From positions 1 to 52,861 of the IMG/VR virus record IMGVR_UViG_3300033149_002181: a DNA stretch of 52,861 bases. The stretch is one strand, 5' to 3'. The translations under genes and the position numbers were made by a program. The notes under the pieces were generated by a model, which did no database searches, had not been told where the DNA came from, and saw nothing but the letters and a program-made list of their open reading frames with translations. Origin of the DNA: a virus (taxonomy: Duplodnaviria; Caudoviricetes). Shown here one piece after another: positions 19,860 through 48,206 of this stretch (its first letter is position 1; the number at the start of each line of letters is the position of its first letter).

Positions 19860-21131
19860 TCATTCTTCTATACCTTCACTGGGTAGATTTGCCACCTCTA
19901 ATAAGTACTTCTCAAGTTCTTTGTTCGGGAATAAAGGCATTCCCGCCATCGCCAGTCGGGATATGAAATTGCTTAATTCCTCCAGACTAATGGACTCAAT
20001 GTCTCCATGCCTCAGCTCAGGATATTTTTCTATTTTGAATTCGTTCAACTTAAATAACCTCGGTACTGCATGAGTATTCAGCACGGCTTCAATTTCATCC
20101 AGAAAGGCGCCTATTGCAACGGCGAAAAGCTCCGTTTTTGAGCTTGCCAGTGCGAAACTACCCACCTTCTGAGTCCCCAACATAATAAAGTCCGCCAGTA
20201 CTGTTTGTGCTATCTGCGTATTATACCGTTGGATAATGGTGCTGGTATCGAACTGTCGTCTGCCTCCGGTAGAAAGCAACTGTATATCGTACAGCTTATT
20301 TCCTTCTTCATCATAGGCCAGCGGCATAACAATTCCTTCCTGCTGATCCCGGCGGATCTTGGTTACCAGACTCTTAAACGCATTTAGGACCGTAGTTTCA
20401 GCGTCTGTTGACGGATTTGCTACGTTAGGCGGTACCCAGACAACGGGGAGTCCAGCTAAATCGCGCTCTACACCGATACCCTCAATAGTCTCAATATTTT
20501 TCTTGAAATACCAGGGTTTGTAACAATTCCTCAGCATGCTCCGCCCCTGTGGCGAATTCTTCATCGATTCTGTCCTGAAAAGGAGCAGCTTCTCAATCGG
20601 TATCTCCCGGAGCTTATAGTCTGGCGGCGCTACTTGTCTTATGCCTTGGATCCCGCCTTCCTCATCGAATATCCATTCTTGTATTGAGTCTTGACTGCGA
20701 ATCGAAAACTTCCGCCAGCCTATTCTGCCGTCGTTATATTTGCTACGTTTTCTAGGATCCTGATTGTCTCCCAATCGACGCTTATATACAATCTCAAAAA
20801 CCGAGTAACCGTACACCAACATAGATAAAACTTCGCTTATGAAGTCCTGCCATGAATGGCTAGTATCATGGATACATTCCTCCAGAAACCTGGCTGCTTC
20901 TCTATCGGCGTTGCTGGCACCTGCTGCGTCAACCCGCCATGGAACTTGACGACATAGCATCCTTATGGCGAAAAGAATGGCACCGATTATCGGGTCGTTA
21001 TCAGCCATCTCCCTGTACACACGAGTAGCTTTAACGCCTTGTAAATCTGGAAGCCACTCTTCATATATATTTCCGCCCCATCTACTAAGGCCCGTAGATC
21101 CTAACATAGTATACAAGTCTATTTTAGCCAA
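19860..21131 (-). CDS. Portal protein (DUF935/Mu gp29-like)
   Basis: After TerL; YGYSVFEIVY, PQGRSMLR, ERDLAGLP and GSFALA motifs. Confidence 0.88.
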   Translation of the reverse strand: MAKIDLYTMLGSTGLSRWGGNIYEEWLPDLQGVKATRVYREMADNDPIIGAILFAIRMLCRQVPWRVDAAGASNADREAARFLEECIHDTSHSWQDFISEVLSMLVYGYSVFEIVYKRRLGDNQDPRKRSKYNDGRIGWRKFSIRSQDSIQEWIFDEEGGIQGIRQVAPPDYKLREIPIEKLLLFRTESMKNSPQGRSMLRNCYKPWYFKKNIETIEGIGVERDLAGLPVVWVPPNVANPSTDAETTVLNAFKSLVTKIRRDQQEGIVMPLAYDEEGNKLYDIQLLSTGGRRQFDTSTIIQRYNTQIAQTVLADFIMLGTQKVGSFALASSKTELFAVAIGAFLDEIEAVLNTHAVPRLFKLNEFKIEKYPELRHGDIESISLEELSNFISRLAMAGMPLFPNKELEKYLLEVANLPSEGIEE

Positions 21132-21134
21132 CTT

Positions 21135-22484
21135 TTATCGCCTCCAGCGGCTTTCACCGTCGATGCCAACAGGCGAGAGAATCGGCGTCTGCATGCCAGA
21201 CTTTACTGCCCAGCATGCTAATGCCAGACTCATCACACAGTCGTCATGCCGACCTTCCGGTGCTTCGGGCCGTACGTTCATTCCACGTCGTACCCGCCGG
21301 AAAAATCGAAGCTCATCCCTTATGGTTGTATTACTTGTCGGTAGAAGCAGCTTTTTTTGTTCGACCTGGATCATCAAGTTTGAAATAAGCTCCTCTCGGC
21401 TGCGTTGCGTGAATACAAACGGCACGCAGTCCTGTACCTGCTCCGCTACAGGATCGCCTACGCCCGTAGCATCAAGATAAACCTTAGCCGCATACTTTGA
21501 CTGCAGATTGTTCACTTGGGCCACAATATCACCGTAAAGCCTGCTGCGGTAGCGATACCACTCGACGATCCTGTATGGTGTCATTGTTATGTCCAATACT
21601 GTTATAACCGTGTAATCTTGATATTTTGCTAAATCCACACCGATGCTGTATACATGGCCTTGCTCCCGCGCGCCCTCAGGTCTATAATCTTCAAACACGT
21701 GCTGGAGAACTGACCAAGGAAAAACTATTGTATCGTCATCGATGAACTCCGCTAAGTACTCTACCCGGAAAGCTAACTCAGGAACTTCTTTGCGAATTCG
21801 TTCAACTTCTTCCAAATCCAGACGGGGGTTATCGAAAACCGTGGCATGAAAGCTTCGGTAGTAACCACTGGCATCATTTAACCCCTGTTGATAGAGCTGA
21901 TATATATATCCCTGGTTACCGTTAGGTGTGGTTTCAGCCCGGATTTTCCCTTTCCGATCTAGAACCATAGCCCTAATGACATCGTTATAAACTTTATCCT
22001 TTACGAATGCAGCTTCGGTAATGACAACTCCATCCGCACCTTTACCTCGGAGATAAACCCCGTCCCGGGCAGTAGACCGCGCCATAATCCGGCTCCCGTT
22101 GATAAGTTCAACTTTCGGAAAAGGAGACCACTTAAATTTTTTCCCCGGCACCAAAATGGAAAGCAGCGGGTTTTCCATCCGCTGCTCAAGCTCGCTAAAA
22201 TATATTTTCGCCTGATCCATACTGGGAGCCGTGATATACCAGCGCTGTTTTTGCTTAGTGGCGCATTCATGAAGTATATCCACCAAGGTAGTTAAAGTTT
22301 TACCGAAGCGTCGGCCAGCTACTTTTACTGAGACCTTGCCACCCAAGTTAACCGCCTTGGACTGTTTTTCTTCCAAAACCACGCCTAGAAACTTTTCAGC
22401 GAAATAAACTTTATCATTGCGACACCTTTTAAGCACATCTCTGGCCTTCCGTTGTTGCTCAACCGTCCATATCATCATCATCAT
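21135..22484 (-). CDS. terL: Terminase large subunit
   Basis: Walker A AGRRFGKT, LRG..AD, TTPNG motif C, nuclease GVDLA, DATGVG and HDDCVMSLALA; start probably in the MMMM run (22475-22484). Confidence 0.93.
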   Translation of the reverse strand: MMMMIWTVEQQRKARDVLKRCRNDKVYFAEKFLGVVLEEKQSKAVNLGGKVSVKVAGRRFGKTLTTLVDILHECATKQKQRWYITAPSMDQAKIYFSELEQRMENPLLSILVPGKKFKWSPFPKVELINGSRIMARSTARDGVYLRGKGADGVVITEAAFVKDKVYNDVIRAMVLDRKGKIRAETTPNGNQGYIYQLYQQGLNDASGYYRSFHATVFDNPRLDLEEVERIRKEVPELAFRVEYLAEFIDDDTIVFPWSVLQHVFEDYRPEGAREQGHVYSIGVDLAKYQDYTVITVLDITMTPYRIVEWYRYRSRLYGDIVAQVNNLQSKYAAKVYLDATGVGDPVAEQVQDCVPFVFTQRSREELISNLMIQVEQKKLLLPTSNTTIRDELRFFRRVRRGMNVRPEAPEGRHDDCVMSLALACWAVKSGMQTPILSPVGIDGESRWRR

Positions 22485-22965
22485 CCCAAAGTGATTGAAA
22501 AGCGTCGACCAAACGGGATTGCGGGTCATCACCGATAAGTTCTTGCCGTGTTCGCATTGCCTGGCGTATTTCGCTCTGCAACTTCTCCCGTAGCTGGACC
22601 AGTGCAAGTGGCGGATTTCTCCTCTCTTTAATGAGGTCTTTTAGCCAAGCTTGTGTTGCTCGACTAAGTTCATAGTTATCCGTTATAGTAGCATCCAATA
22701 TTTCAACGTCACTCAGCCTTTTCTTGACCTGCTGTTGCATTTGTTCCTGGCTCTTCCAGTACTGCTCCCTAACTTCAGCTTTAATGTCAAAATGTTCATT
22801 CATGTGTTTCCAGATGGACTGGTGGCTTATTTTTTCCCCATGATCTTCAAACAGCTTTACAGATGCGGCTCTGGGACTAAGACCTTCCTCTTTGCACCAT
22901 TTTTCTATTTCAGCCCGGCGCTGACTGTTGCATACCTTGCACCGGGAAGAATATCCAGTCGGCAC
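22459..22965 (-). CDS. Putative terminase small subunit
   Basis: Directly upstream of terL; CKVC...H..H plus HTH-like region; GTG start at 22965 after AGGAGGTGG. Confidence 0.65.
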   Translation of the reverse strand: MPTGYSSRCKVCNSQRRAEIEKWCKEEGLSPRAASVKLFEDHGEKISHQSIWKHMNEHFDIKAEVREQYWKSQEQMQQQVKKRLSDVEILDATITDNYELSRATQAWLKDLIKERRNPPLALVQLREKLQSEIRQAMRTRQELIGDDPQSRLVDAFQSLWDDDDDMDG

Positions 22966-22989
22966 ACCGGGCCACCTCCTTGTTCGTTG

Positions 22990-23065
22990 TTCGTGTTCGT
23001 GTTGTTTGTGTTCGTGTTGTTTGTGTTCGTGTTGTTTGTGTTCGTGTTGTTTGTGTTCGTGTTCG
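22990..23065. repeat. 15-bp tandem repeat (gttcgtgttgtttgt), about 4 copies plus partials
   Basis: Read directly from the sequence; lies upstream of the terS RBS. Confidence 0.9.
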
Positions 23066-23092
23066 ATTGCCCAGCACGTTCTTGCCCAATAG

Positions 23093-23118
23093 AAAAACCC
23101 TGCCGTTATGACAGGATT
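23093..23118 (-). terminator. Intrinsic terminator-like hairpin upstream of terS
   Basis: CCTGTC-ATAAC-GGCAGG then GTTTTT on the minus strand. Confidence 0.55.
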
Positions 23119-23330
23119 GGAGTTTCGCGCCCCAAACATTGCCCGGAGCTTTGCCAGAACCTAAGACTCATCTTGTGATACGGGTCACGATACACCTCCG
23201 CGACAGTCACCTGTAACCGGGCAGTTAGGACTATGGCTCGTATCACATAATGGTCCCTTAACATTTTTTAGTTTCGGGGGTTTACTCACCTACCCACCAT
23301 TCGGTGTATCAGTGAAACCATTTTATTATA

Positions 23331-23462
23331 GTGATACGGGCAAGGATTTGCACCTTGCATGATAACGCAAACCACTTAGATAGGGGTCTAAGTCCCTTTG
23401 ACACATTCCTTAATGCGCTATCTAACCTCCACCAGCGTCTACCTATTCCGCCACCGTATCAC
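23331..23462 (-). ncRNA. tRNA-like structured RNA lacking a canonical anticodon arm
   Basis: 9-bp acceptor-like stem GTGATACGG/CCGTATCAC; Leu-type D arm TGGCGGAATAGGTAGACGC; T arm GCAAGG-TGCAAAT-CCTTGC; branched insert of about 75 nt. Confidence 0.75.
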
Positions 23463-23647
23463 CTTATACTGGTTCTCCTAACATTTTTCAGTTCTTGTTT
23501 AAAGCATACTGCATATCTTTTACCTAACAAAACCATCCAAGCATCTTTAAGTCGAATTTTTAATGAATTCCATATGATAGGTTTTGCTATATACCATTTA
23601 CCGTCTATTTCTACTTGGTTATCGACTAAAGTGTCAATTAAAATCAC
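23459..23647 (-). CDS. Hypothetical phage protein
   Basis: RBS GGAGGAG; IDGKWYIAKP...RLKDAW.VL.GK pattern. Confidence 0.55.
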   Translation of the reverse strand: MILIDTLVDNQVEIDGKWYIAKPIIWNSLKIRLKDAWMVLLGKRYAVCFKQELKNVRRTSIR

Positions 23648-23800
23648 TTCTTTTTTCTCCTCCCTCTAAAAAAAATAAATTTTTACCGCTTTCTCCTGCG
23701 GCCTCCTGCATTGCATCGGGTTTAATCTTCATGCAGACCCACCGGTTCATCCACAAATCAACCCGTAAGCATTGTGGTCACCCGGTTTTCACACATCCTA

Positions 23801-24064
23801 TTATACTCGCTCCCAAATTGCCACATAAAAATAACCTGCCGGAAACTTATATACACTCATTAATTTAAATAAAATTTCTTTCGGAATTTCCCAATGCCCA
23901 TTTTCGTACATGCATAATGTACCTAAATCAATTCCTAATTGTTCAGCAGCTTCTTCCAAAGTTAAACCCCTGGCTTGTCTGGCATCAACAAGACGCTCTG
24001 GAACAATATAGTCAACTATTTCTCGTTTTCTAACACGTACTTTAAAATCATGAAATAAACTCAT
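23801..24064 (-). CDS. XRE-family HTH protein
   Basis: RLVDARQARGLTLEEAAEQLGI...YENG. Confidence 0.8.
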   Translation of the reverse strand: MSLFHDFKVRVRKREIVDYIVPERLVDARQARGLTLEEAAEQLGIDLGTLCMYENGHWEIPKEILFKLMSVYKFPAGYFYVAIWERV

Positions 24065-24309
24065 TTTTAATGTTCCCTAATATGTTATTTTTCTGAATTA
24101 AATTTTATTTCCTCAACTTGAATCTGCTTTCCCTCCGGCATCATTCGAATCCCGTCTATAATAGCACTCATAATTCGTGCAGTATTTATTTCTTTGGGGA
24201 ATTTAATAATACAATCAATTTTTATTTTCATTACTGCTATTTCCTTTTAAAATATTTTTAAGCGGAGGAGTGGGGAGCTCCCTGTATGGAAAAACAGATA
24301 ACCTGATTT

Positions 24310-25002
24310 TTACCATCCTTTTCGGATAGCTCTCTCTGATACCACTATAGCACAGAAACATACCCTCTGTAGTATTGAATTTGTATGGAACGTGATTTTT
24401 TTAACAAAACATCGATACTTCGGGGAAAATAGAGATATTATGTATGCCCAGACATCCTCCCCTTTCCAACCAAAAACCGGTCGGCATTTCCATATTTCCT
24501 CCGTCTTTGAAAAATAAAACAATCCATATTTACCACTGTATTTTCGGCCTAAACTTTCCTCTCCTCGTAAACCAAATATTAAACAATCTATATCAAATTC
24601 GTTAATTGCTTTCTTTATACCGGCCATTAAATTATTTTTTAAAATTTCACGTTTGATATTACTTAACCCGCCTGCTTCCCGATATATTTCAAAAATTTCT
24701 TTCGGCGTTTTAACTCGATGATAATTCAATTTATACTTTTGCGCATAATTATCATACATTTCAACAGCTTCTTCTAAATCTCCGCCTTGACCCCGATCGA
24801 TATTTATAATCAATATATCCGGCTTAATCTGCCTTGCAATATCCACACAAACAAGACTATCTTTGCCAAAACTAAAACTAACTGCTGGATTTCGGCATGT
24901 TTTAATCGCTTGTTTAAGCGCATTTTGCGCTTCTTCCAAGCGGCGCTTAAATCTTGGTAATAACGCTGTCATAAAATACTGATCTTTTTGCCATTGTTCC
25001 AT
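24310..25002 (-). CDS. cysH: CysH-like PAPS reductase family protein associated with type IV-B Cas; C-terminus possibly truncated
   Basis: PP-loop VSFSFGKDS, GLRGEES..R and CRPVFGWKGEDVWAYI motifs. Confidence 0.85.
   Translation of the reverse strand: MEQWQKDQYFMTALLPRFKRRLEEAQNALKQAIKTCRNPAVSFSFGKDSLVCVDIARQIKPDILIINIDRGQGGDLEEAVEMYDNYAQKYKLNYHRVKTPKEIFEIYREAGGLSNIKREILKNNLMAGIKKAINEFDIDCLIFGLRGEESLGRKYSGKYGLFYFSKTEEIWKCRPVFGWKGEDVWAYIISLFSPKYRCFVKKITFHTNSILQRVCFCAIVVSERAIRKGW
24344..24390 (-). promoter_or_regulatory. Putative late promoter (extended -10 TGCTATAGT)
   Basis: TGn-TATAGT without a clear -35, pointing towards the packaging genes. Confidence 0.4.
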
Positions 25003-25871
25003 CTCCTATACCCCCAGACAGTGTAAAGAATCATCGGCATAACAATAAATATCCGCGCCGTCGCATACCATGTCCATATCTGCGTCGCTGTTTTAGTTGC
25101 AAATAATGGCCATGAAAATAATGCGGCAACGGATATAACAACTGCCAATATGTCACCAGATAGATCTTGCAATGCCGCAATACATGAATCGAGTGTCGAC
25201 GTTGCCACGGCTATGATTATAATCGCAAATAATATTTGTGAAATTGCGCCTTGAGATAGAAAGGCGAAAAATACCAGGCTTAAATATAGGCCAAAAGCCA
25301 AAGATGCCAAAAGCCACGGATTGACACCTTTAATCCTTTCTGCACGTTGAAATTGCTGGCCGTCGAGAAATGGCCCGGCCATCAATCCTATACAAGCAGA
25401 TACAACCCAGCTAACATTAACCGGCTGATAATTTAAAACATTAAGATTAAATTTGCCTGTCAAAATAACAAGCACCAATCCACCAACCATAGCTAAATAT
25501 TGCCATTGATCACTTTCAACAGAAAACTTAAATTTATATTTATATGTCAGAAGAAATATTATGGTCGCGACAGTAGTTGCCCATCCGTTGCCAATATAAG
25601 TTGCCATGATCCTAATATTAATCCATATACAAAATATTTGTATCCCAATCATAGCTAATTTGATAAATATACTATTCTTTAATTTGATATAACCCGGATA
25701 TTTTCTTACGAACGCCCCATAAATAAATAGTGATAAAATGTTACATACCGCCCATGGCAGAAAAGAATGTAAGCCCATAGTTTTTAAAATACTAAAGCTC
25801 ACGCCCAAACTAACTCCCCAGGCCCAGGAAGCGGCTGCACTAATACCTAATTTAAACTGTTTGATTTGCAT
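24969..25871 (-). CDS. Polytopic membrane protein, sodium:solute symporter-like
   Basis: About 9-10 hydrophobic segments; SAAASWAWG, SVESDQWQY, GPFLDGQQFQRA and STLDS resemble SSS-family motifs. Confidence 0.6.
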   Translation of the reverse strand: MQIKQFKLGISAAASWAWGVSLGVSFSILKTMGLHSFLPWAVCNILSLFIYGAFVRKYPGYIKLKNSIFIKLAMIGIQIFCIWINIRIMATYIGNGWATTVATIIFLLTYKYKFKFSVESDQWQYLAMVGGLVLVILTGKFNLNVLNYQPVNVSWVVSACIGLMAGPFLDGQQFQRAERIKGVNPWLLASLAFGLYLSLVFFAFLSQGAISQILFAIIIIAVATSTLDSCIAALQDLSGDILAVVISVAALFSWPLFATKTATQIWTWYATARIFIVMPMILYTVWGYRRWNNGKKISIL

Positions 25872-26526
25872 TGCATGCTAACCTCCGATCGTTTGGTATT
25901 AATACTCTCGTCCACTGCCACGCAAGCCAATATGGTGAACGAATACCCATTTCAACATCTCCGTTTTCATCGGGAATGGCCCGGAGGTAAGAAAGATCCT
26001 CCGGCCACTCCCCGACTGTCCAACGTACCACTCGTCCAAACCCCTGGCTACGTTTTTTACCGATGTGAGTCACGTATTTTAGCAATATTTCTATTTTGTT
26101 TTTTTCTCCTACTGCATACCATTCCAGCTTTGGCATAAGATATGTCACCAGCGGCATTCGATAGTTTTTATATTGACCTGACTTAACATTGACCTTTCCG
26201 CGTTTTTTGCCGAAGTCAATGTATTTCTGCGCGTCATCAAAATCCAATCTTTTATGCCAGTGCACTATCTCTTCGCGTTGCGGTTTTCCGCAGGCAAACG
26301 AACAAGCCCAATACCAGTCATCATCTTCGCCTCGTTTTTCAAGCGGTAAATCAGGGACTATTAAATTTTCCGGCATAATACTGCTTTGAGAAGCAATCAT
26401 AGCTTCAGGGTGATTCAATCTAATCCAAACCTCAGCCAGAATTGAGTCGAGAGGCAGAAAAAGATCATATGTTGCTATTTTCCCAGTCTGCATATATGCA
26501 GTAATTTTCAGTGGTTGCATATTCAT
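25852..26526 (-). CDS. csf3: Type IV CRISPR-associated Csf3 (Cas5 group RAMP)
   Basis: PLKITA...LPLDSILA, WACS, G.YKNYRMP, WYAVG, G-rich loop IGKKRSQGFGRV, RSPYW. Confidence 0.88.
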   Translation of the reverse strand: MNMQPLKITAYMQTGKIATYDLFLPLDSILAEVWIRLNHPEAMIASQSSIMPENLIVPDLPLEKRGEDDDWYWACSFACGKPQREEIVHWHKRLDFDDAQKYIDFGKKRGKVNVKSGQYKNYRMPLVTYLMPKLEWYAVGEKNKIEILLKYVTHIGKKRSQGFGRVVRWTVGEWPEDLSYLRAIPDENGDVEMGIRSPYWLAWQWTRVLIPNDRRLACNANQTV

Positions 26527-27506
26527 CCTCCTATGGCGCGAATTAACGAGTCTCGTTTTTCCTCCAGATACCCAGCGTATCGGTTGAGAAACTCATCATA
26601 TTTCACCTTCGCGTCCTTCGCCGATTCAGCGAGAAAACATTTTCCGTCAGCCACACTCAAAAACGGTTCTTTTCCTTCGCCGAATAGCTCAATTTGCATA
26701 TCGACTTTTACTTTTCCCATTCCGATCCGTGCCTGTCCGCCGATGTATGGCTGCTTGGACCATTCAACGATTGCTGCCACGAAGGCGCCGAGCTCAATTT
26801 CGGTCATATCCTGAAAGACGGTTTCCTGCCATAACACAGAACCCCGGCATAATACCTCAATCATGTACCGCATCTGCTCTGGTCTATCTTTCTTCTTCTC
26901 TTTCTTCTCGTCTCCTGAGTCAAGCATCAAGGCGGCTTGTCCGCCGGTAAGTTTCGGAGTGTCATCGCTCTGGAGATATGGCCGGAGCAGATCATCTTTC
27001 GCATCGTCCTTCCGGCTATAACTAATTTCCGTTGTCATTTGCCGCCATGATAATTTCCGGTTCCCGGGAACCTCCTGTGGTATAATATGCGCCAGCTCTC
27101 TGCACACCGGCAACCCCTCACCAACAGCCAATTTCCCGGGCAACAGCATGTTTCCGACTCCACCGCCGAACACTGACAGGTGGGGTATTTGCTCCCTTAT
27201 CCGCCGTGCCTGATCAATATCGATTGACTGATCGCCACCGATTGCTCCACCTGAGAAAAACAGATAAAACATCTCAAGCGGAATCTGTAACGTTACACCG
27301 CTCCCTAATTTGTCCAGCATGTACCGGGCTCCCGAATCCCGCCACACGCCACGCAGAGCGTTCCCGGAGTATACGAATACCTGAGCGATATTTCCCTCCG
27401 CGTCCAGAATGTCCTGGGTTGACAAGTATGAATTCGGTCCGATACTCTCCCCAATATGCGATAAGGGACTTAATAGTGTAAAAACCGTTTCTATTCTACC
27501 GTTCAT
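26523..27506 (-). CDS. csf2: Type IV CRISPR-associated Csf2 (Cas7 backbone)
   Basis: LLSPLSH, YSGNALRG, LFFSGG, SVFGG, G-loop IGGQARIGMG; start MNGRIE at 27506 with GGAGGAG RBS. Confidence 0.9.
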   Translation of the reverse strand: MNGRIETVFTLLSPLSHIGESIGPNSYLSTQDILDAEGNIAQVFVYSGNALRGVWRDSGARYMLDKLGSGVTLQIPLEMFYLFFSGGAIGGDQSIDIDQARRIREQIPHLSVFGGGVGNMLLPGKLAVGEGLPVCRELAHIIPQEVPGNRKLSWRQMTTEISYSRKDDAKDDLLRPYLQSDDTPKLTGGQAALMLDSGDEKKEKKKDRPEQMRYMIEVLCRGSVLWQETVFQDMTEIELGAFVAAIVEWSKQPYIGGQARIGMGKVKVDMQIELFGEGKEPFLSVADGKCFLAESAKDAKVKYDEFLNRYAGYLEEKRDSLIRAIGG

Positions 27507-27981
27507 AAATAATCTCCTCCTCGTCTTCTTTGATAATTCCACTGACCTCAAGCGGTTTTTCTCTTTCAAGCCGGTCGCGGACTAACGCAATTACCCATGA
27601 TGTTTTTTGATATAAAATCTCCAGAATCGGTCCATGGTTCACTTGCTCCAGAATCCCAACCCAAAATTGCCGACGGCCTTTGTCTTGTTTTTGAATCAGC
27701 TCGCCGGTTTCTCTATCGACCGCCATTGTTATTGTTTCCGGGTCAGTCGCCATCCACTTGGGTTTCAGAGTAGAGCACATCAGCCGGGGTTTGAGTTTTT
27801 CGATGAAATCATGTAGATCTAACGCCCGCTTTGCGCTGCTCTTGCAAGCCCTCTCAATAATTCCCCACATGTCAGGGGTTACTTTAAAACGTTTCATGTC
27901 ACGGCTTCTGTAAATGCCGTATATAATTAAAGCCCCGATAGCCGCGTCTTCTGAATTCGTCTCGAATCCGTAATACATCAA
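27496..27981 (-). CDS. cas11: Putative Cas11 small subunit of the type IV-B complex
   Basis: 161-aa helical protein directly upstream of csf2, where IV-B loci carry the small subunit. Confidence 0.6.
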   Translation of the reverse strand: MMYYGFETNSEDAAIGALIIYGIYRSRDMKRFKVTPDMWGIIERACKSSAKRALDLHDFIEKLKPRLMCSTLKPKWMATDPETITMAVDRETGELIQKQDKGRRQFWVGILEQVNHGPILEILYQKTSWVIALVRDRLEREKPLEVSGIIKEDEEEIIYER

Positions 27982-28394
27982 ATTTCCTCCTCTCGCCTTT
28001 TAATCTCATTTAAAAATCCCGTTTTACGTGCTATTTTAAGGATCCGCGCAGGATTCATACAAAAAGACAGCACTTTCAAAACCTGCTGTTTTTCTGGATC
28101 ACCGCGGATCGCTGCCCTCCGTCGACTAAAAAATATTTCCACCGCATTCTGGCTACGATTAAGCCTCCTGGCTATGTAATCATAACTTTTACCCATTGAG
28201 TATAACTTGATCGCAATTTCTTTTTCCAGCTCTGTCCATCGGCGGACGGGCCGGCGGATAATGCCTGCTTTTTTTAGGTATCGTTCAACAGTGGTATGAG
28301 AGATATTAAGCACTGAAGCTGTTTGACGGATAGTTTTCCCGCCTTGAATCAAAAGAATAATCTTCTGTCGTTTTGCGTCGCTTATTTTTTGCAT
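27978..28394 (-). CDS. Double-HTH DNA-binding protein
   Basis: Two HTH-like units (GKTIRQTASVLNISHTTVERY; GKSYDYIARRLNRSQNAV); likely start MQKIS. Confidence 0.7.
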   Translation of the reverse strand: MQKISDAKRQKIILLIQGGKTIRQTASVLNISHTTVERYLKKAGIIRRPVRRWTELEKEIAIKLYSMGKSYDYIARRLNRSQNAVEIFFSRRRAAIRGDPEKQQVLKVLSFCMNPARILKIARKTGFLNEIKRREEEI

Positions 28395-28506
28395 TTTGCG
28401 CCCCTTCCCGCTCTTTAATATTGTCACTATTGGTAAGTGAGATTCCAAGCCATATGCTTTGTAAATTGCCTAACTGCGTGCGGAGTCACAAAATATTTTC
28501 CGGCTA

Positions 28507-29187
28507 TCATTTTTCCTCCCGCTGCGCTATAAATAGCGCTAATTGAAATAAGCTGCTTCTCCGTACCGGCGCTATGGTTTTTTCAAGTTGTTCCCAACGT
28601 TCCAAACCGAATTCCCGGATTCGGTGGCTCTGATATTGTCCTGTTTCTATTTCCTTTTTTGTAAATACCTGATATAACGACTCAATGATATTAAGCAGGT
28701 CTTTAAATCGTCCAGGCACCACCATAACGTCATAATTATCCATCCTGACAGTAAATTTCTGATTCGACAAATTAACCTTCGCCTTGAAATGCAGCCACCT
28801 TTGCCCCGACTCCGCTACCGTCATTAAAAACGGTGGTTTGGGTGGTTGCAACAACGTTTCGCGAATTTGCAGTCGTGACAGGTGATATAACCCGTTCCCT
28901 GTCGCCAGCAGAGAATAATTTCTCAATTCCCTATACGACAGAGCCCATATGCAGTGTTCGCAAACCATCTCTGACCACGGGATTTTCGCCAGATCATGAT
29001 CGGTAAATGTCGGTTTAATGATTTTCTTTTTCGGGTGGCCTGTTTCAGGACGACATCCGCAAAGCCAACATTGCCCAGATAGTTTTCCCTCCGGCGCAGG
29101 ATCATAATGGACTGTTTTCCCACTCGGTGTTTCTATGTTGGGCTTCCGCATCGCTGCACAATACAAAAAATCAACAGAGCAAACCAT
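28507..29187 (-). CDS. csf1: Type IV CRISPR-associated Csf1 (Cas8-like large subunit)
   Basis: CWLCG...TFTD...VCEHC zinc finger; PPKPPF...SGQRWLHFKAKVN; first gene of the csf operon. Confidence 0.82.
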   Translation of the reverse strand: MVCSVDFLYCAAMRKPNIETPSGKTVHYDPAPEGKLSGQCWLCGCRPETGHPKKKIIKPTFTDHDLAKIPWSEMVCEHCIWALSYRELRNYSLLATGNGLYHLSRLQIRETLLQPPKPPFLMTVAESGQRWLHFKAKVNLSNQKFTVRMDNYDVMVVPGRFKDLLNIIESLYQVFTKKEIETGQYQSHRIREFGLERWEQLEKTIAPVRRSSLFQLALFIAQREEK

Positions 29188-29196
29188 ATTCCCACC

Positions 29197-29637
29197 TCAA
29201 ATCAATTCATACATTTTTGCAATTCTGCCTAATGCTCGAAATTTAGTATCAAAATAATCGTTACGGTATCCAAACCCTAAATAGACCATCACTTCCTCAT
29301 CAGTCGGTTCTGCCGGATTGAAATACCGCGTTTCAATTAATTTTCTTTCCCGTTCTGTACAGGCCGCCAACCCTGAATCTATGCGTCCGATCCAAAATTC
29401 CAAGTCTTTTATTTTCTGATCCGTCCGCTCAGCCAGTATTCCCGCTGCACTGGTGGGATCTCCCGGTTCACCAGATTGTACCGAAATATTAACAGCCTGT
29501 CGTGACTTATAATATATATCTTGTCTATCCTGCTTAAGCTGTTTAAGCTGCGCTTTTTTAATTTTATATTCCCGGAGCTCATTTTCTATAAAAACTTTCA
29601 CATGATGAGGAAGTTTAATTTTTGGTTTTTCGCTCAA
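29197..29637 (-). CDS. RinA/ArpU-like late transcriptional activator
   Basis: IENELREY...GDPT...ERKLIETRYF; sits at the end of the early region. Confidence 0.75.
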   Translation of the reverse strand: MSEKPKIKLPHHVKVFIENELREYKIKKAQLKQLKQDRQDIYYKSRQAVNISVQSGEPGDPTSAAGILAERTDQKIKDLEFWIGRIDSGLAACTERERKLIETRYFNPAEPTDEEVMVYLGFGYRNDYFDTKFRALGRIAKMYELI

Positions 29638-29812
29638 TTTCCATCACCTGTCCTTTTTCCTTCAGCTTGATCTCTTGCGTTTCCATGTGCCTTAAAATCG
29701 CTTTATAGTCATCAATCGTTGGATTATATACCCCACCGCGGTATGGCCGGGGTGGTTTACGGCCTATTTTTTTAAAGATTTCTTCTATGATTAGCTGTTT
29801 TGTGCTTGGCAT
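29615..29812 (-). CDS. Hypothetical protein
   Basis: Overlapping operon arrangement. Confidence 0.45.
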   Translation of the reverse strand: MPSTKQLIIEEIFKKIGRKPPRPYRGGVYNPTIDDYKAILRHMETQEIKLKEKGQVMEIERKTKN

Positions 29813-30200
29813 TTTCCCTCAATCCCTCAATCTTAATAATCTCAATTTCTACCCGAGGATTCTCTCGATCAACCCCCACAATTTTTGAACCATCCAATCT
29901 CATTACATCCTGATCATCTCGTATAATCCCGGCCTTTTGGAGTATATCCTGTGTCGCCTGTATCAGTCCCACCAGATCCGGTTTTTGCCTCGTCGGCATC
30001 CAATATTCGCATTTTAACCTAACCGGCCCAGTGAAACATGGGCCGCGATACTTTTTCAGATGCCAGAGACATTCTGTCTCATAGTTTTGATACTGCTCTG
30101 ACTGCACGACAAAAGGTTTTCCTGTTTTCCGGTTTCGCCAGATTTGTTGGTGATTTTTCTTGGACATGGGCCTGCCTGGAAGGGTGATTTCAACTTTCAT
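29772..30200 (-). CDS. rusA: RusA-like Holliday junction resolvase
   Basis: PGRPMSKKN...KPDL...D.L...IIRDD...PRVEIEI. Confidence 0.85.
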   Translation of the reverse strand: MKVEITLPGRPMSKKNHQQIWRNRKTGKPFVVQSEQYQNYETECLWHLKKYRGPCFTGPVRLKCEYWMPTRQKPDLVGLIQATQDILQKAGIIRDDQDVMRLDGSKIVGVDRENPRVEIEIIKIEGLRENAKHKTANHRRNL

Positions 30201-30576
30201 TTTTCCATTTCCATTTTTCGCCATCATAACAATCATGACAAGGCTCTTCGGCGCCGCTTTGGTACTGGTATTTACAGTTTAAACAATTTCTTATAACAGG
30301 CATCTTATCTTCATCGCCAGGCGCCCTTTCCAACCACTCCTTCGGCACTCGATGAAAACCGTGCAGATCAGTGGCAACAAGGTAGACTTTTTGAGGATGT
30401 TCCGGGCAGAAAGTATGATTATCAACCCATTCTCCATCTTTCCAGATTGTCCGCACTCCACAGATAACTCCTGCCAATTTGTCCCCATGTCGCCATTCAA
30501 CCCAACCCCGTTGTTTTCTGCCGCTTTTCCGCTTCACTAACTCCTTACTAAATCTCACTTTATCGCCGAGTTTCAT
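30190..30576 (-). CDS. Hypothetical protein with Cys-rich C-terminus
   Basis: RBS GGAGGTG; CLNC...C..C. Confidence 0.5.
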   Translation of the reverse strand: MKLGDKVRFSKELVKRKSGRKQRGWVEWRHGDKLAGVICGVRTIWKDGEWVDNHTFCPEHPQKVYLVATDLHGFHRVPKEWLERAPGDEDKMPVIRNCLNCKYQYQSGAEEPCHDCYDGEKWKWKNES

Positions 30577-47903: not shown

Positions 47904-47926
47904 ATTTTTCCCTCCTTTTTTTTATT

Positions 47927-47988
47927 TTGGCCTGCCTCATCAGCGGTGGGCGGCCAACCTCACCGGACGCCCTGAAGGGCGTTTCGGC
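47927..47988 (-). ncRNA. Type II hammerhead ribozyme
   Basis: GCC-GAAA-CGCCC TTCA GGGCG-TC^-CGGTG...CACCG-CTGATGA-GGC; loop TTGGCC pairs with 3' GGCCAA. Confidence 0.92.
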
Positions 47989-48206
47989 TATTCTACGAAG
48001 TCCGTATCCCCGTCTGGCAACATACGGTATGTGCCAGACTTAATCCGGAAACTTCGATGATCGAAGTTTTCTGGACACCCGATGTGGAATTCGCCGTCGG
48101 TCTGGTCAAATTCCAAAATGTCTAATGGGGCTCCGCATTCGGGGCAGCGGAGATTTTCCAACCCTTCCGTGGAGCCATTCCGTTTGAAAATGACAGTGTA
48201 AATCAT
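47988..48206 (-). CDS. Small zinc-ribbon protein
   Basis: CPECG...C....H; RBS GGAGG. Confidence 0.55.
   Translation of the reverse strand: MIYTVIFKRNGSTEGLENLRCPECGAPLDILEFDQTDGEFHIGCPENFDHRSFRIKSGTYRMLPDGDTDFVE

Follow-up and report, generated by a model that had tools for sequence, protein, structure and literature searches.

The DNA analyzed here, referred to below as the window, makes up a single, complete record of a Caudoviricetes virus (IMG/VR record IMGVR_UViG_3300033149_002181; 52,861 bases, CheckV completeness 100%). Its minus strand carries a type IV-B csf operon in which a gene for a 300-amino-acid membrane transporter, starting with ATG (24969–25871), is located between csf3 and a cysH-like gene. 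Based on the structural model, it was concluded that the transporter is a minimal ten-helix LeuT-fold carrier. Trees and signature residues further indicated that the transporter and the CysH-like enzyme form a two-gene module, which appears to have been passed among distinct csf backbones of type IV-B. From the fold, the conserved sites and the gene linkage it was proposed that, on balance, the transporter supplies the neighboring PP-loop enzyme with a small co-substrate taken up from outside the cell.

Fold, family and working site of the transporter

Searches of Pfam, NCBIfam, PHROG and PADLOC assigned the transporter protein to no family. The gene is nevertheless genuine and belongs to a family that lacks annotation. 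Besides the transporter itself, 20 relatives were recovered down to an E value of 1e-14 in a search of 5.8 billion clusters, and a full-length relative with 84% identity (P0002) was located on another contig. The family profile collected 296 representatives at E<=1e-3, 76 of them at E<=1e-30, among 1.84 billion proteins.

The AlphaFold2 model of the transporter (mean pLDDT 90.3, pTM 0.87) contained 12 helices, 10 of which were membrane helices, and helix breaks were assigned by DSSP to residues 15–17 of helix 1 and to residue 170 of helix 6. This is the LeuT-fold core found in the sodium:solute symporter family (SSF), with two inverted five-helix repeats and broken helices 1 and 6. Using VIA-align, the best structural match was SiaT (5nva_A, Z 23.6; root-mean-square deviation 3.9, 289 residues aligned), followed by CHT1 (Z 23.3), SMCT1 (22.4), DMT1 (21.5), DUR3 (21.3), SGLT1 (20.9) and LeuT (20.1). 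The core shared with DUR3 and the SSF carriers (SiaT, CHT1, SMCT1, SGLT, SMVT) corresponded to Z values of 20.9–23.6. In an exhaustive structural comparison, all 44 chains with Z of at least 8 were LeuT-fold transporters, and the chain at rank 45 fell to Z 7.3. Foldseek and ESM Atlas agreed with the assignment. A preliminary description of this DNA had called the protein symporter-like and pointed to the LeuT fold; every strong structural match obtained by Foldseek, VIA-align and ESM Atlas was indeed a LeuT-fold secondary transporter. A Pfam match to Phage_holin_2_1 (E 0.037, 14.5 bits vs 26) was rejected as noise given the fold evidence.

The best LeuT-fold matches were chains of 472–659 residues, whereas the transporter has 300, of which 284–297 were aligned. 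Since the core alignment consumed the whole length of the protein (model residues 1–299), no accessory helices or soluble domain are predicted. To our knowledge, this core-only protein is among the shortest LeuT-fold carriers reported, and it may be of some interest for structural work on transporters.

A profile built from 79 family members was compared with the sequences of the PDB. It was related to the characterized SSF members DUR3 (E 2.9e-7, 1.4e-6 and 1.5e-6) and SMVT (4.2e-4) and, more weakly, to SGLT1/2 (0.03–0.04) and NIS (0.1). The window transporter showed no match to PF00474 at E<=0.1, and 4 of the 79 family members matched it at E<=0.01 (best 1.5e-8). The Pfam SSF cut-off of 22.8 bits was exceeded by relatives of 457 and 459 amino acids in two Clostridia genomes (71.3 and 47.4 bits). 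Three other genomes gave lower-scoring matches (G213, G376 and G325; E 8e-13 to 9e-11), with reading frames of 472–513 amino acids. The transporter contains 10 helices and none outside the ten-helix core, whereas SSF carriers have 13–15 in total, with 15 given for DUR3 in the accessible text of PMC11840088. Because neither the Pfam threshold nor the usual helix count was reached, we regard the transporter as a distant and shortened side branch of the sodium:solute symporters, with the urea-proton symporter DUR3 as its nearest relative, rather than as a regular SSF member. It further differs from the SSF carriers in being encoded by a phage and in its pairing with a PP-loop enzyme.

The most conserved motifs of the family were SWAWG at the helix-1 break, GPFLDGQQFQRA at the helix-6 break and TSTLDS in helix 8. 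LeuT-fold carriers hold their cargo and coupling ion at these positions of helices 1, 6 and 8. In the profile alignment to AtDUR3, residues W16, W18, S21 and W40 of the transporter corresponded to W93, W95, T98 and Y117, which contact urea according to the accessible text of PMC11840088. Likewise, the invariant D170 corresponded to D312, for which a role in proton coupling is proposed there. Both the Trp-x-Trp cage of helix 1 and the Asp of helix 6 are thereby aligned with DUR3 residues of reported or proposed function, where the part from helix 1 to helix 5 was significant alone and the part covering helices 6 and 8 was weak alone and leaned on the helix breaks of the model. Further, an S-D-Q-W-Q stretch precedes helix 5 in the transporter, with T-D-x-x-Q-W in the sister subfamilies; we take it to resemble the T-D-x-x-Q signature of the SSF. 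Every invariant and nearly invariant family residue was kept in the transporter, and its working site looks intact as judged from this conservation.

Linkage to the CysH-like enzyme

The transporter reading frame overlaps the 3' end of csf3 by 20 nt (25852–25871) and the 5' end of cysH by 34 nt (24969–25002), which confirmed the 300-residue membrane frame overlapping both neighbors that had been described from the letters alone. A GGAGG Shine-Dalgarno sequence was located 10 nt before the transporter ATG, and AGGAGA 7 nt before the cysH ATG.

Three collections were searched with the transporter, which yielded 29 loci. A PAPS-reductase-family gene was directly adjacent in 23 of them, and csf genes were present in the same locus in 18. 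The linkage to csf and cysH in other genomes, on the absence of which the initial idea would have failed, was therefore recovered. In another four, the contig broke off inside the transporter gene or immediately behind it, and csf genes lay upstream in all four. Where cysH was adjacent, the pair was embedded in the csf operon, or abutted it, with overlapping reading frames at 14 of the 23 loci. The transporter preceded cysH in the window and in L009, L011, L012 and L013, and the order was reversed in 15 loci. No match was found by tblastn with the transporter against GenBank phages and PLSDB plasmids.

A separate survey based on Csf2 covered 68 phage loci, in which the transporter was present in 4 (the same contigs as L001–L004) and absent from 45, the remaining 19 being not judgeable. 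The neighborhood survey suggested earlier thus found the family at type IV-B loci, but only at 4 of 49 assessable ones. Therefore, the transporter is a minority accessory, informative about one CysH subgroup and not a general part of type IV-B. At 64 transporter-less csf loci, no other reading frame with at least 4 hydrophobic segments was found within 2.5 kb; full-length members of the transporter family, used as a positive control, scored 6–9 under the same crude rule. With Csf2 as the tblastn query, Skermania phage SPI1 was the sole match among the GenBank phages and PLSDB plasmids.

The inheritance of the two genes was compared by using trees. On the Csf2 tree of 59 assessable loci, the 14 transporter carriers were scattered (9 changes), and forcing them together was rejected (log-likelihood difference 559.8, p-AU 7.4e-42). 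By contrast, when a tree was built from short CysH proteins (53 distinct sequences), all 12 that were linked to a transporter fell on one side of a single branch. A single change was obtained in 87% of 200 bootstrap trees and a value as low in none of 500 label shuffles. The window itself illustrates the difference: its Csf2 grouped with the transporter-less loci L032–L038 (support 98), and its CysH with the transporter-linked L011, L013, L009 and L012 (100/100). The G+C fraction was 0.379 for the transporter and 0.356 for cysH vs 0.449–0.494 for csf1, cas11 and csf2. Additionally, R70 was found in 100% and N215 in 91% of 11 distinct transporter-linked CysH proteins, and both were found in 0 of 41 transporter-less ones. 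The scattered carriers on the Csf2 tree, taken together with the single CysH group, suggest that the transporter and CysH move as a two-gene module, apparently between different csf backbones. Since the two are co-inherited and this CysH group has residues of its own, the partner of the transporter is likely the CysH-like enzyme and not the Csf complex. The preliminary description had regarded the gene as a clue to type IV-B function; this holds for one CysH subgroup and not for type IV-B as a whole.

The cysH-like gene (24310–25002, minus strand) matched PF01507 PAPS_reduct above the cut-off (E 3.1e-16) over residues 39–189, with a PP-loop-like S-F-G-K-D-S at residues 44–49. No invariant Cys was present among 11 relatives, so sulfonucleotide reduction by this transporter-linked group is unlikely. 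The enzyme, CasCysH, is viewed as an ATP alpha-hydrolase that AMPylates something, rather than as a sulfonucleotide reductase, in the accessible text of PMC8175902. The model of the intact L011 CysH (pLDDT 85.6) was closest to APS/PAPS reductases (Z 17.2–18.6), the ATP-sulfurylase CysD (18.2) and the FAD-synthase PAPS domain (17.2), and scored lower with the tRNA-modifying PP-loop enzymes (TilS and others, 12.4–12.6; QueC, 9.0). The nearest solved relatives all act on AMP that is linked to a small group (sulfate or FMN). The simplest reading would therefore be a carrier that supplies such a group or the nucleophile displacing AMP.

The cysH-like gene named in the preliminary description is indeed a PAPS_reduct gene, but the window copy is truncated. 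The CysH proteins of the relatives have 252–265 amino acids, and in an alignment with 8 of them the similarity of the window protein ended at about residue 190–194. Homology spanned 25002 to ~24421, and the tail at 24420–24310 (~36 residues) was unrelated. The missing C-terminus was searched for by tblastn with 4 relatives, and nothing credible was found anywhere in the window. Hence, the module may be incomplete in this phage.

Pairs of a transporter and a PAPS reductase were also found without csf genes. In one lineage (L007, L014, L015 and L016) the order was a ParB-like gene, the transporter, a PAPS_reduct+DUF3440 gene (447 amino acids), a second ParB-like gene, TerS and TerL. At L110, which is a prophage in a Clostridia genome, an SSF relative above the Pfam threshold was followed by a ParB-like gene, a PAPS reductase, another ParB-like gene, TerS, TerL, the portal and head-morphogenesis genes, and in L109 an SSF relative was placed directly before a 262-amino-acid PAPS reductase. 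The phage pairs of PAPS reductase and ParB-like protein therefore resemble the window module in the enzyme superfamily and in the place before TerS/TerL, and some of them carry the same transporter family (the L007 group) or a full-length SSF relative (L109, L110). They differ in having no Csf, and their enzyme is longer (381–447 amino acids, with DUF3440 in the L007 group) and belongs to a different branch of the CysH tree. Their E. coli homologues are called IbrA/IbrB. As in the window, the csf-free pairs are framed by a gene of the late-regulator type on one side and by packaging genes on the other, a position that suggests late expression.

Two side observations concern the PAPS-reductase genes. 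Seven phage type IV-B loci (L048, L054, L081, L085, L087, L098 and L099) contained two genes of this family, a short CasCysH beside csf3 and a second one of 350–392 amino acids at 1–3 kb; the longer genes grouped with the ParB-associated type. In L016 (4391–5424) the long PAPS-reductase gene was split into two overlapping frames, and it was whole (447 amino acids) in the near-identical L007, L014 and L015.

Proposed role and alternative explanations

The function of type IV-B and of its strictly associated CysH-like enzyme is presented as an open question in the accessible text of PMC8175902 and PMC7038947. We proposed that the transporter is a secondary-active membrane carrier reduced to the ten-helix LeuT-fold core, which would work as a partner of the neighboring CysH-like enzyme and not of the Csf ribonucleoprotein as such. 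Its cargo would most likely be a small polar molecule taken up by the infected cell, import being the presumed direction. The PP-loop (ATP alpha-hydrolase) enzyme may then use this molecule as the adenylylated group or as the nucleophile displacing AMP, and would probably modify nucleic acid late in infection, presumably just before packaging. Import of a co-substrate is the explanation towards which the evidence inclines, if not by much. A more specific version was judged unlikely: that the pair marks a phage pathway not described before, in which an exogenous small molecule is imported late and attached to nucleic acid by the PP-loop enzyme via an adenylylated intermediate, directed by Csf in type IV-B and by ParB-like proteins in the csf-free loci. 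If this were true, type IV-B would be an RNA-guided nucleic-acid modification system, and the widespread genes called phage PAPS reductases would encode modification enzymes and not enzymes of sulfur metabolism.

A dedicated carrier that co-evolves with one CysH group would offer an experimental handle, as its cargo is probably the co-substrate of the enzyme. The same logic extends to the pairs of PAPS reductase and ParB-like protein located before the terminase in the phages and prophages examined. The value of this handle is limited in that the transporter is an accessory of a minority of loci, the partner cysH is damaged in the window copy, and the carrier function is a prediction from sequence and model.

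Several results weighed against the import of a co-substrate. The transporter was absent from 45 of the 49 assessable phage type IV-B loci, and Skermania phage SPI1 had csf2, csf3 and cysH without it; CasCysH can therefore work without the transporter. Conversely, two of the 29 loci, with the distant relatives L018 and L027, had no PAPS-reductase gene, hence the transporter family is not tied exclusively to this enzyme. The raw counts of loci are inflated by near-copies (23 distinct sequences among 26 rows of the transporter tree), the carrier group for the Csf2 test was defined after a first tree had been seen, and the branch uniting the transporter-linked CysH proteins had moderate support (UFBoot 85/SH-aLRT 74). 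Several residues of the DUR3 pocket were not kept either, N305, Y315 and Q124 corresponding to L163, Q173 and S47 of the transporter. The cargo therefore need not be urea-like, and urea is not claimed. Finally, the cysH of the window lacks the conserved C-terminal ~60 residues, including 11 positions invariant among 11 relatives.

The two genes could instead constitute an auxiliary metabolic module that phages maintain close to their packaging genes, in which the uptake of a nutrient, such as a sulfur or vitamin-like compound, is combined with its adenylyl transfer or reduction, nucleic acid is not involved, and adjacency to csf reflects a shared insertion hot spot. The structural neighbors of the CysH model are small-molecule enzymes (APS/PAPS reductase, CysD, FAD synthase), and the partner family is labeled an auxiliary metabolic gene in PHROG. 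The occurrence of the pair without csf genes is also in agreement with this, as is the fact that the pair, whether with or without csf, is found after a late regulator and before the terminase. However, reduction of a sulfonucleotide is made unlikely by the lack of an invariant Cys in the transporter-linked CysH, in the light of the accessible text of PMC8175902. The csf-free pairs are flanked by ParB-like DNA-binding or nuclease-type genes, and the overlapping frames in or beside the csf operon at 14 of the 23 cysH-adjacent loci also speak against a mere hot spot. A metabolic module was thus considered improbable. A still smaller probability was given to the explanation that concerns the state of the window copy alone and not the nature of the module, namely that the pair is decaying here and the transporter is a passenger without current function. 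The ~60 conserved C-terminal residues are missing from the window cysH with no remnant elsewhere in the window, and the downstream region (23140–24309) is GC-poor with small frames only. The transporter frame, on the other hand, is intact with all invariant and nearly invariant residues, both genes kept a Shine-Dalgarno sequence, and the 84%-identical relative on another contig is full-length. Such decay is very unlikely in our view.

Likewise, the transporter could be a membrane effector, comparable to those attached to type III and VI CRISPR systems, which carries no cargo and whose action on the membrane (depolarization, superinfection exclusion or an effect on lysis timing) would be triggered by a product of the CysH-like enzyme. 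The linkage to CysH fits an effector as well as it fits import. The CRISPR accessory membrane proteins described so far are effectors, for example the SAM-AMP-sensing CorA homologue in the accessible text of PMC12669027, and the possibility that CasCysH makes second messengers is considered in that of the review PMC8175902. The CorA homologue of types III-B/III-D is likewise a membrane protein in a class 1 CRISPR-type locus beside a nucleotide-handling accessory enzyme. It differs from the transporter, which is a LeuT-type carrier and not a CorA-type channel, has no sensor domain and is conserved at the buried carrier site. All 300 residues are used by the transporter core, leaving no room for a soluble sensor; in agreement with this, no ligand-sensing domain of the CorA, Csx28 or Cam1 type was found, there being no residues outside the carrier core. 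Conservation in the family is found where cargo and ions are bound in the interior of the LeuT fold and not on the cytosolic face, and those longer relatives that pair with PAPS reductases are ordinary SSF transporters above the Pfam threshold. The effector was therefore graded as the less likely alternative, with a clearly low probability, and the import of a co-substrate for the CysH-like enzyme was retained as the preferred explanation.

The csf operon and other features of the window

The canonical type IV-B set (csf1, cas11, csf2 and csf3 with a cysH-like gene; for example, in Mycobacterium sp. JS623) is also present in the window as the same five-gene core, and carriage by a mobile element is common to both, as is the lack of an array insofar as none was found in the window. 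Compared with this set, the window operon has two extra genes, the transporter gene and one for a helix-turn-helix (HTH) protein, and its cysH belongs to a distinct transporter-linked group with signature residues and is truncated. A cysH-like gene of the PAPS-reductase fold, with a PP-loop and no catalytic Cys, is a usual companion of type IV-B, and the window gene corresponds to it. The initial view that a transporter lies outside the standard gene set was borne out by the literature: neither a transporter nor any other membrane gene was found to be named for type IV-B loci in the main texts, as far as accessible, of PMC10848311, PMC8175902, PMC12669027, 10.1101/270033 and PMC7038947, although supplementary gene tables could list one.

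All genes of this region are read from high to low coordinates on the minus strand, and all reading frames of the csf operon were accounted for. The series is headed by a RusA-like resolvase (29772–30236), followed by an ArpU/RinA-like phage late transcription regulator (29197–29637) directly upstream of the csf operon. The regulator matched phrog_36 transcriptional regulator (E 1.6e-13), and TIGR01637 phage_arpU (E 3.2e-6) and TIGR01636 rinA (E 9.9e-5) below their curated cut-offs. The type IV-B core of csf1, cas11, csf2 and csf3 is contained in one operon according to NCBIfam and PADLOC. The csf1 gene for the Cas8-like large subunit (28507–29187) matched TIGR03114 cas8u_csf1 (E 1.1e-20, 74.2 bits; curated cut-off 140) and was 44–46% identical to the first gene of L001–L004. 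The cas11 gene for the small subunit (27496–27981; PADLOC typeIV_Cas11, E 2.1e-37) was 52–54% identical to its equivalent in the same loci. The csf2 gene for Cas7 (26523–27569) matched TIGR03115 cas7_csf2 below the cut-off (E 2.4e-15) and phrog_22746 (E 2.2e-55), with up to 55% identity to the 68 IMG/VR loci. Finally, csf3 for Cas5 (25852–26526) matched TIGR03116 cas5_csf3 (E 1.1e-21, 77.5 bits; curated cut-off 140) and phrog_34599 (E 4.2e-25). The csf1, csf2 and csf3 assignments are the best NCBIfam matches, all below the curated cut-offs, and they are mutually consistent and agree with PADLOC and the 68 related phage loci. No CRISPR-like direct repeats or array were found in the window. Type IV-B typically also lacks cas6 and a helicase gene; neither was among the assigned frames of the operon, although no search aimed at Cas6 or helicases was made over the whole window.

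The HTH gene (27978–28448; PF13936 HTH_38, E 4.1e-11) is inserted between csf1 and cas11. Its NCBIfam match to Cbp1, a protein that binds CRISPR repeats, was weak (E 6.6e-9) and fell far short of the cut-off. HTH genes recurred in or beside the transporter-bearing type IV-B loci L008 (610–1089), L009 (4957–5352) and L017 (1426–1767).

Downstream of cysH, the ~1.2 kb at 23140–24309 are GC-poor and hold small frames only. A 226-amino-acid frame without a match to any PHROG family (22459–23139) precedes the gene of the terminase large subunit (21135–22607; phrog_2, E 1.2e-44), after which the portal gene (19860–21131; phrog_113, E 2.7e-87) and head-morphogenesis genes are located. The transporter/cysH module is thereby placed between the late regulator and the packaging genes. 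Within the 226-amino-acid frame, 4 overlapping copies of a 33-nt unit with 15-nt spacing (22986–23063) translate into consecutive H-E-H-K-Q repeats close to the N-terminus. A promoter/terminator scan of 22400–30400 gave counts not clearly above those of shuffled sequences (25 vs 18.6±4.5; 11 vs 6.7±3.0).

A tRNA-like element was noticed between cysH and the packaging genes (~23331–23459, minus strand). Its acceptor-type stem has 7 bp, one stretch resembles a D arm and one hairpin a T arm. The middle contains ~55 extra nucleotides, and the folding energy was -43.9 kcal/mol (z -2.4). The element was not called by ARAGORN, which found no tRNA anywhere in the window, and it matched no Rfam family; at E<=1, Rfam gave just one chance-level RAGATH-8 match in the region downstream of cysH.

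Some of the compared loci had features of their own. A Cas6-like gene (PADLOC Cas6, E 3e-13), which is unusual for type IV-B, was located between csf3 and cysH in L002 (4577–5212), and the same gene was present in the transporter-bearing L001, L003, L004, L019 and L023. No CRISPR array was found near these genes in stretches of 12.9 kb, the sole repeat family (in L002) being not array-like. In L008 (4729–6202), and also in L052, a second pair of csf1-like and csf3-like genes followed csf1-cas11-csf2-csf3 and preceded cysH and the transporter. The distant family members in L018 (4201–11465) and L027 (3–4219), with 22–28% identity, were part of an apparent cellular biosynthetic cluster containing DUF4301, a UDP-glucose/GDP-mannose-dehydrogenase-family protein, a B12-binding radical-SAM protein and a hexapeptide (acyl)transferase. 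Elsewhere in the window, a type II hammerhead ribozyme was identified at 47926–47989 on the minus strand as a full-length match (51.4 bits against a gathering threshold of 37, E 9.7e-8).

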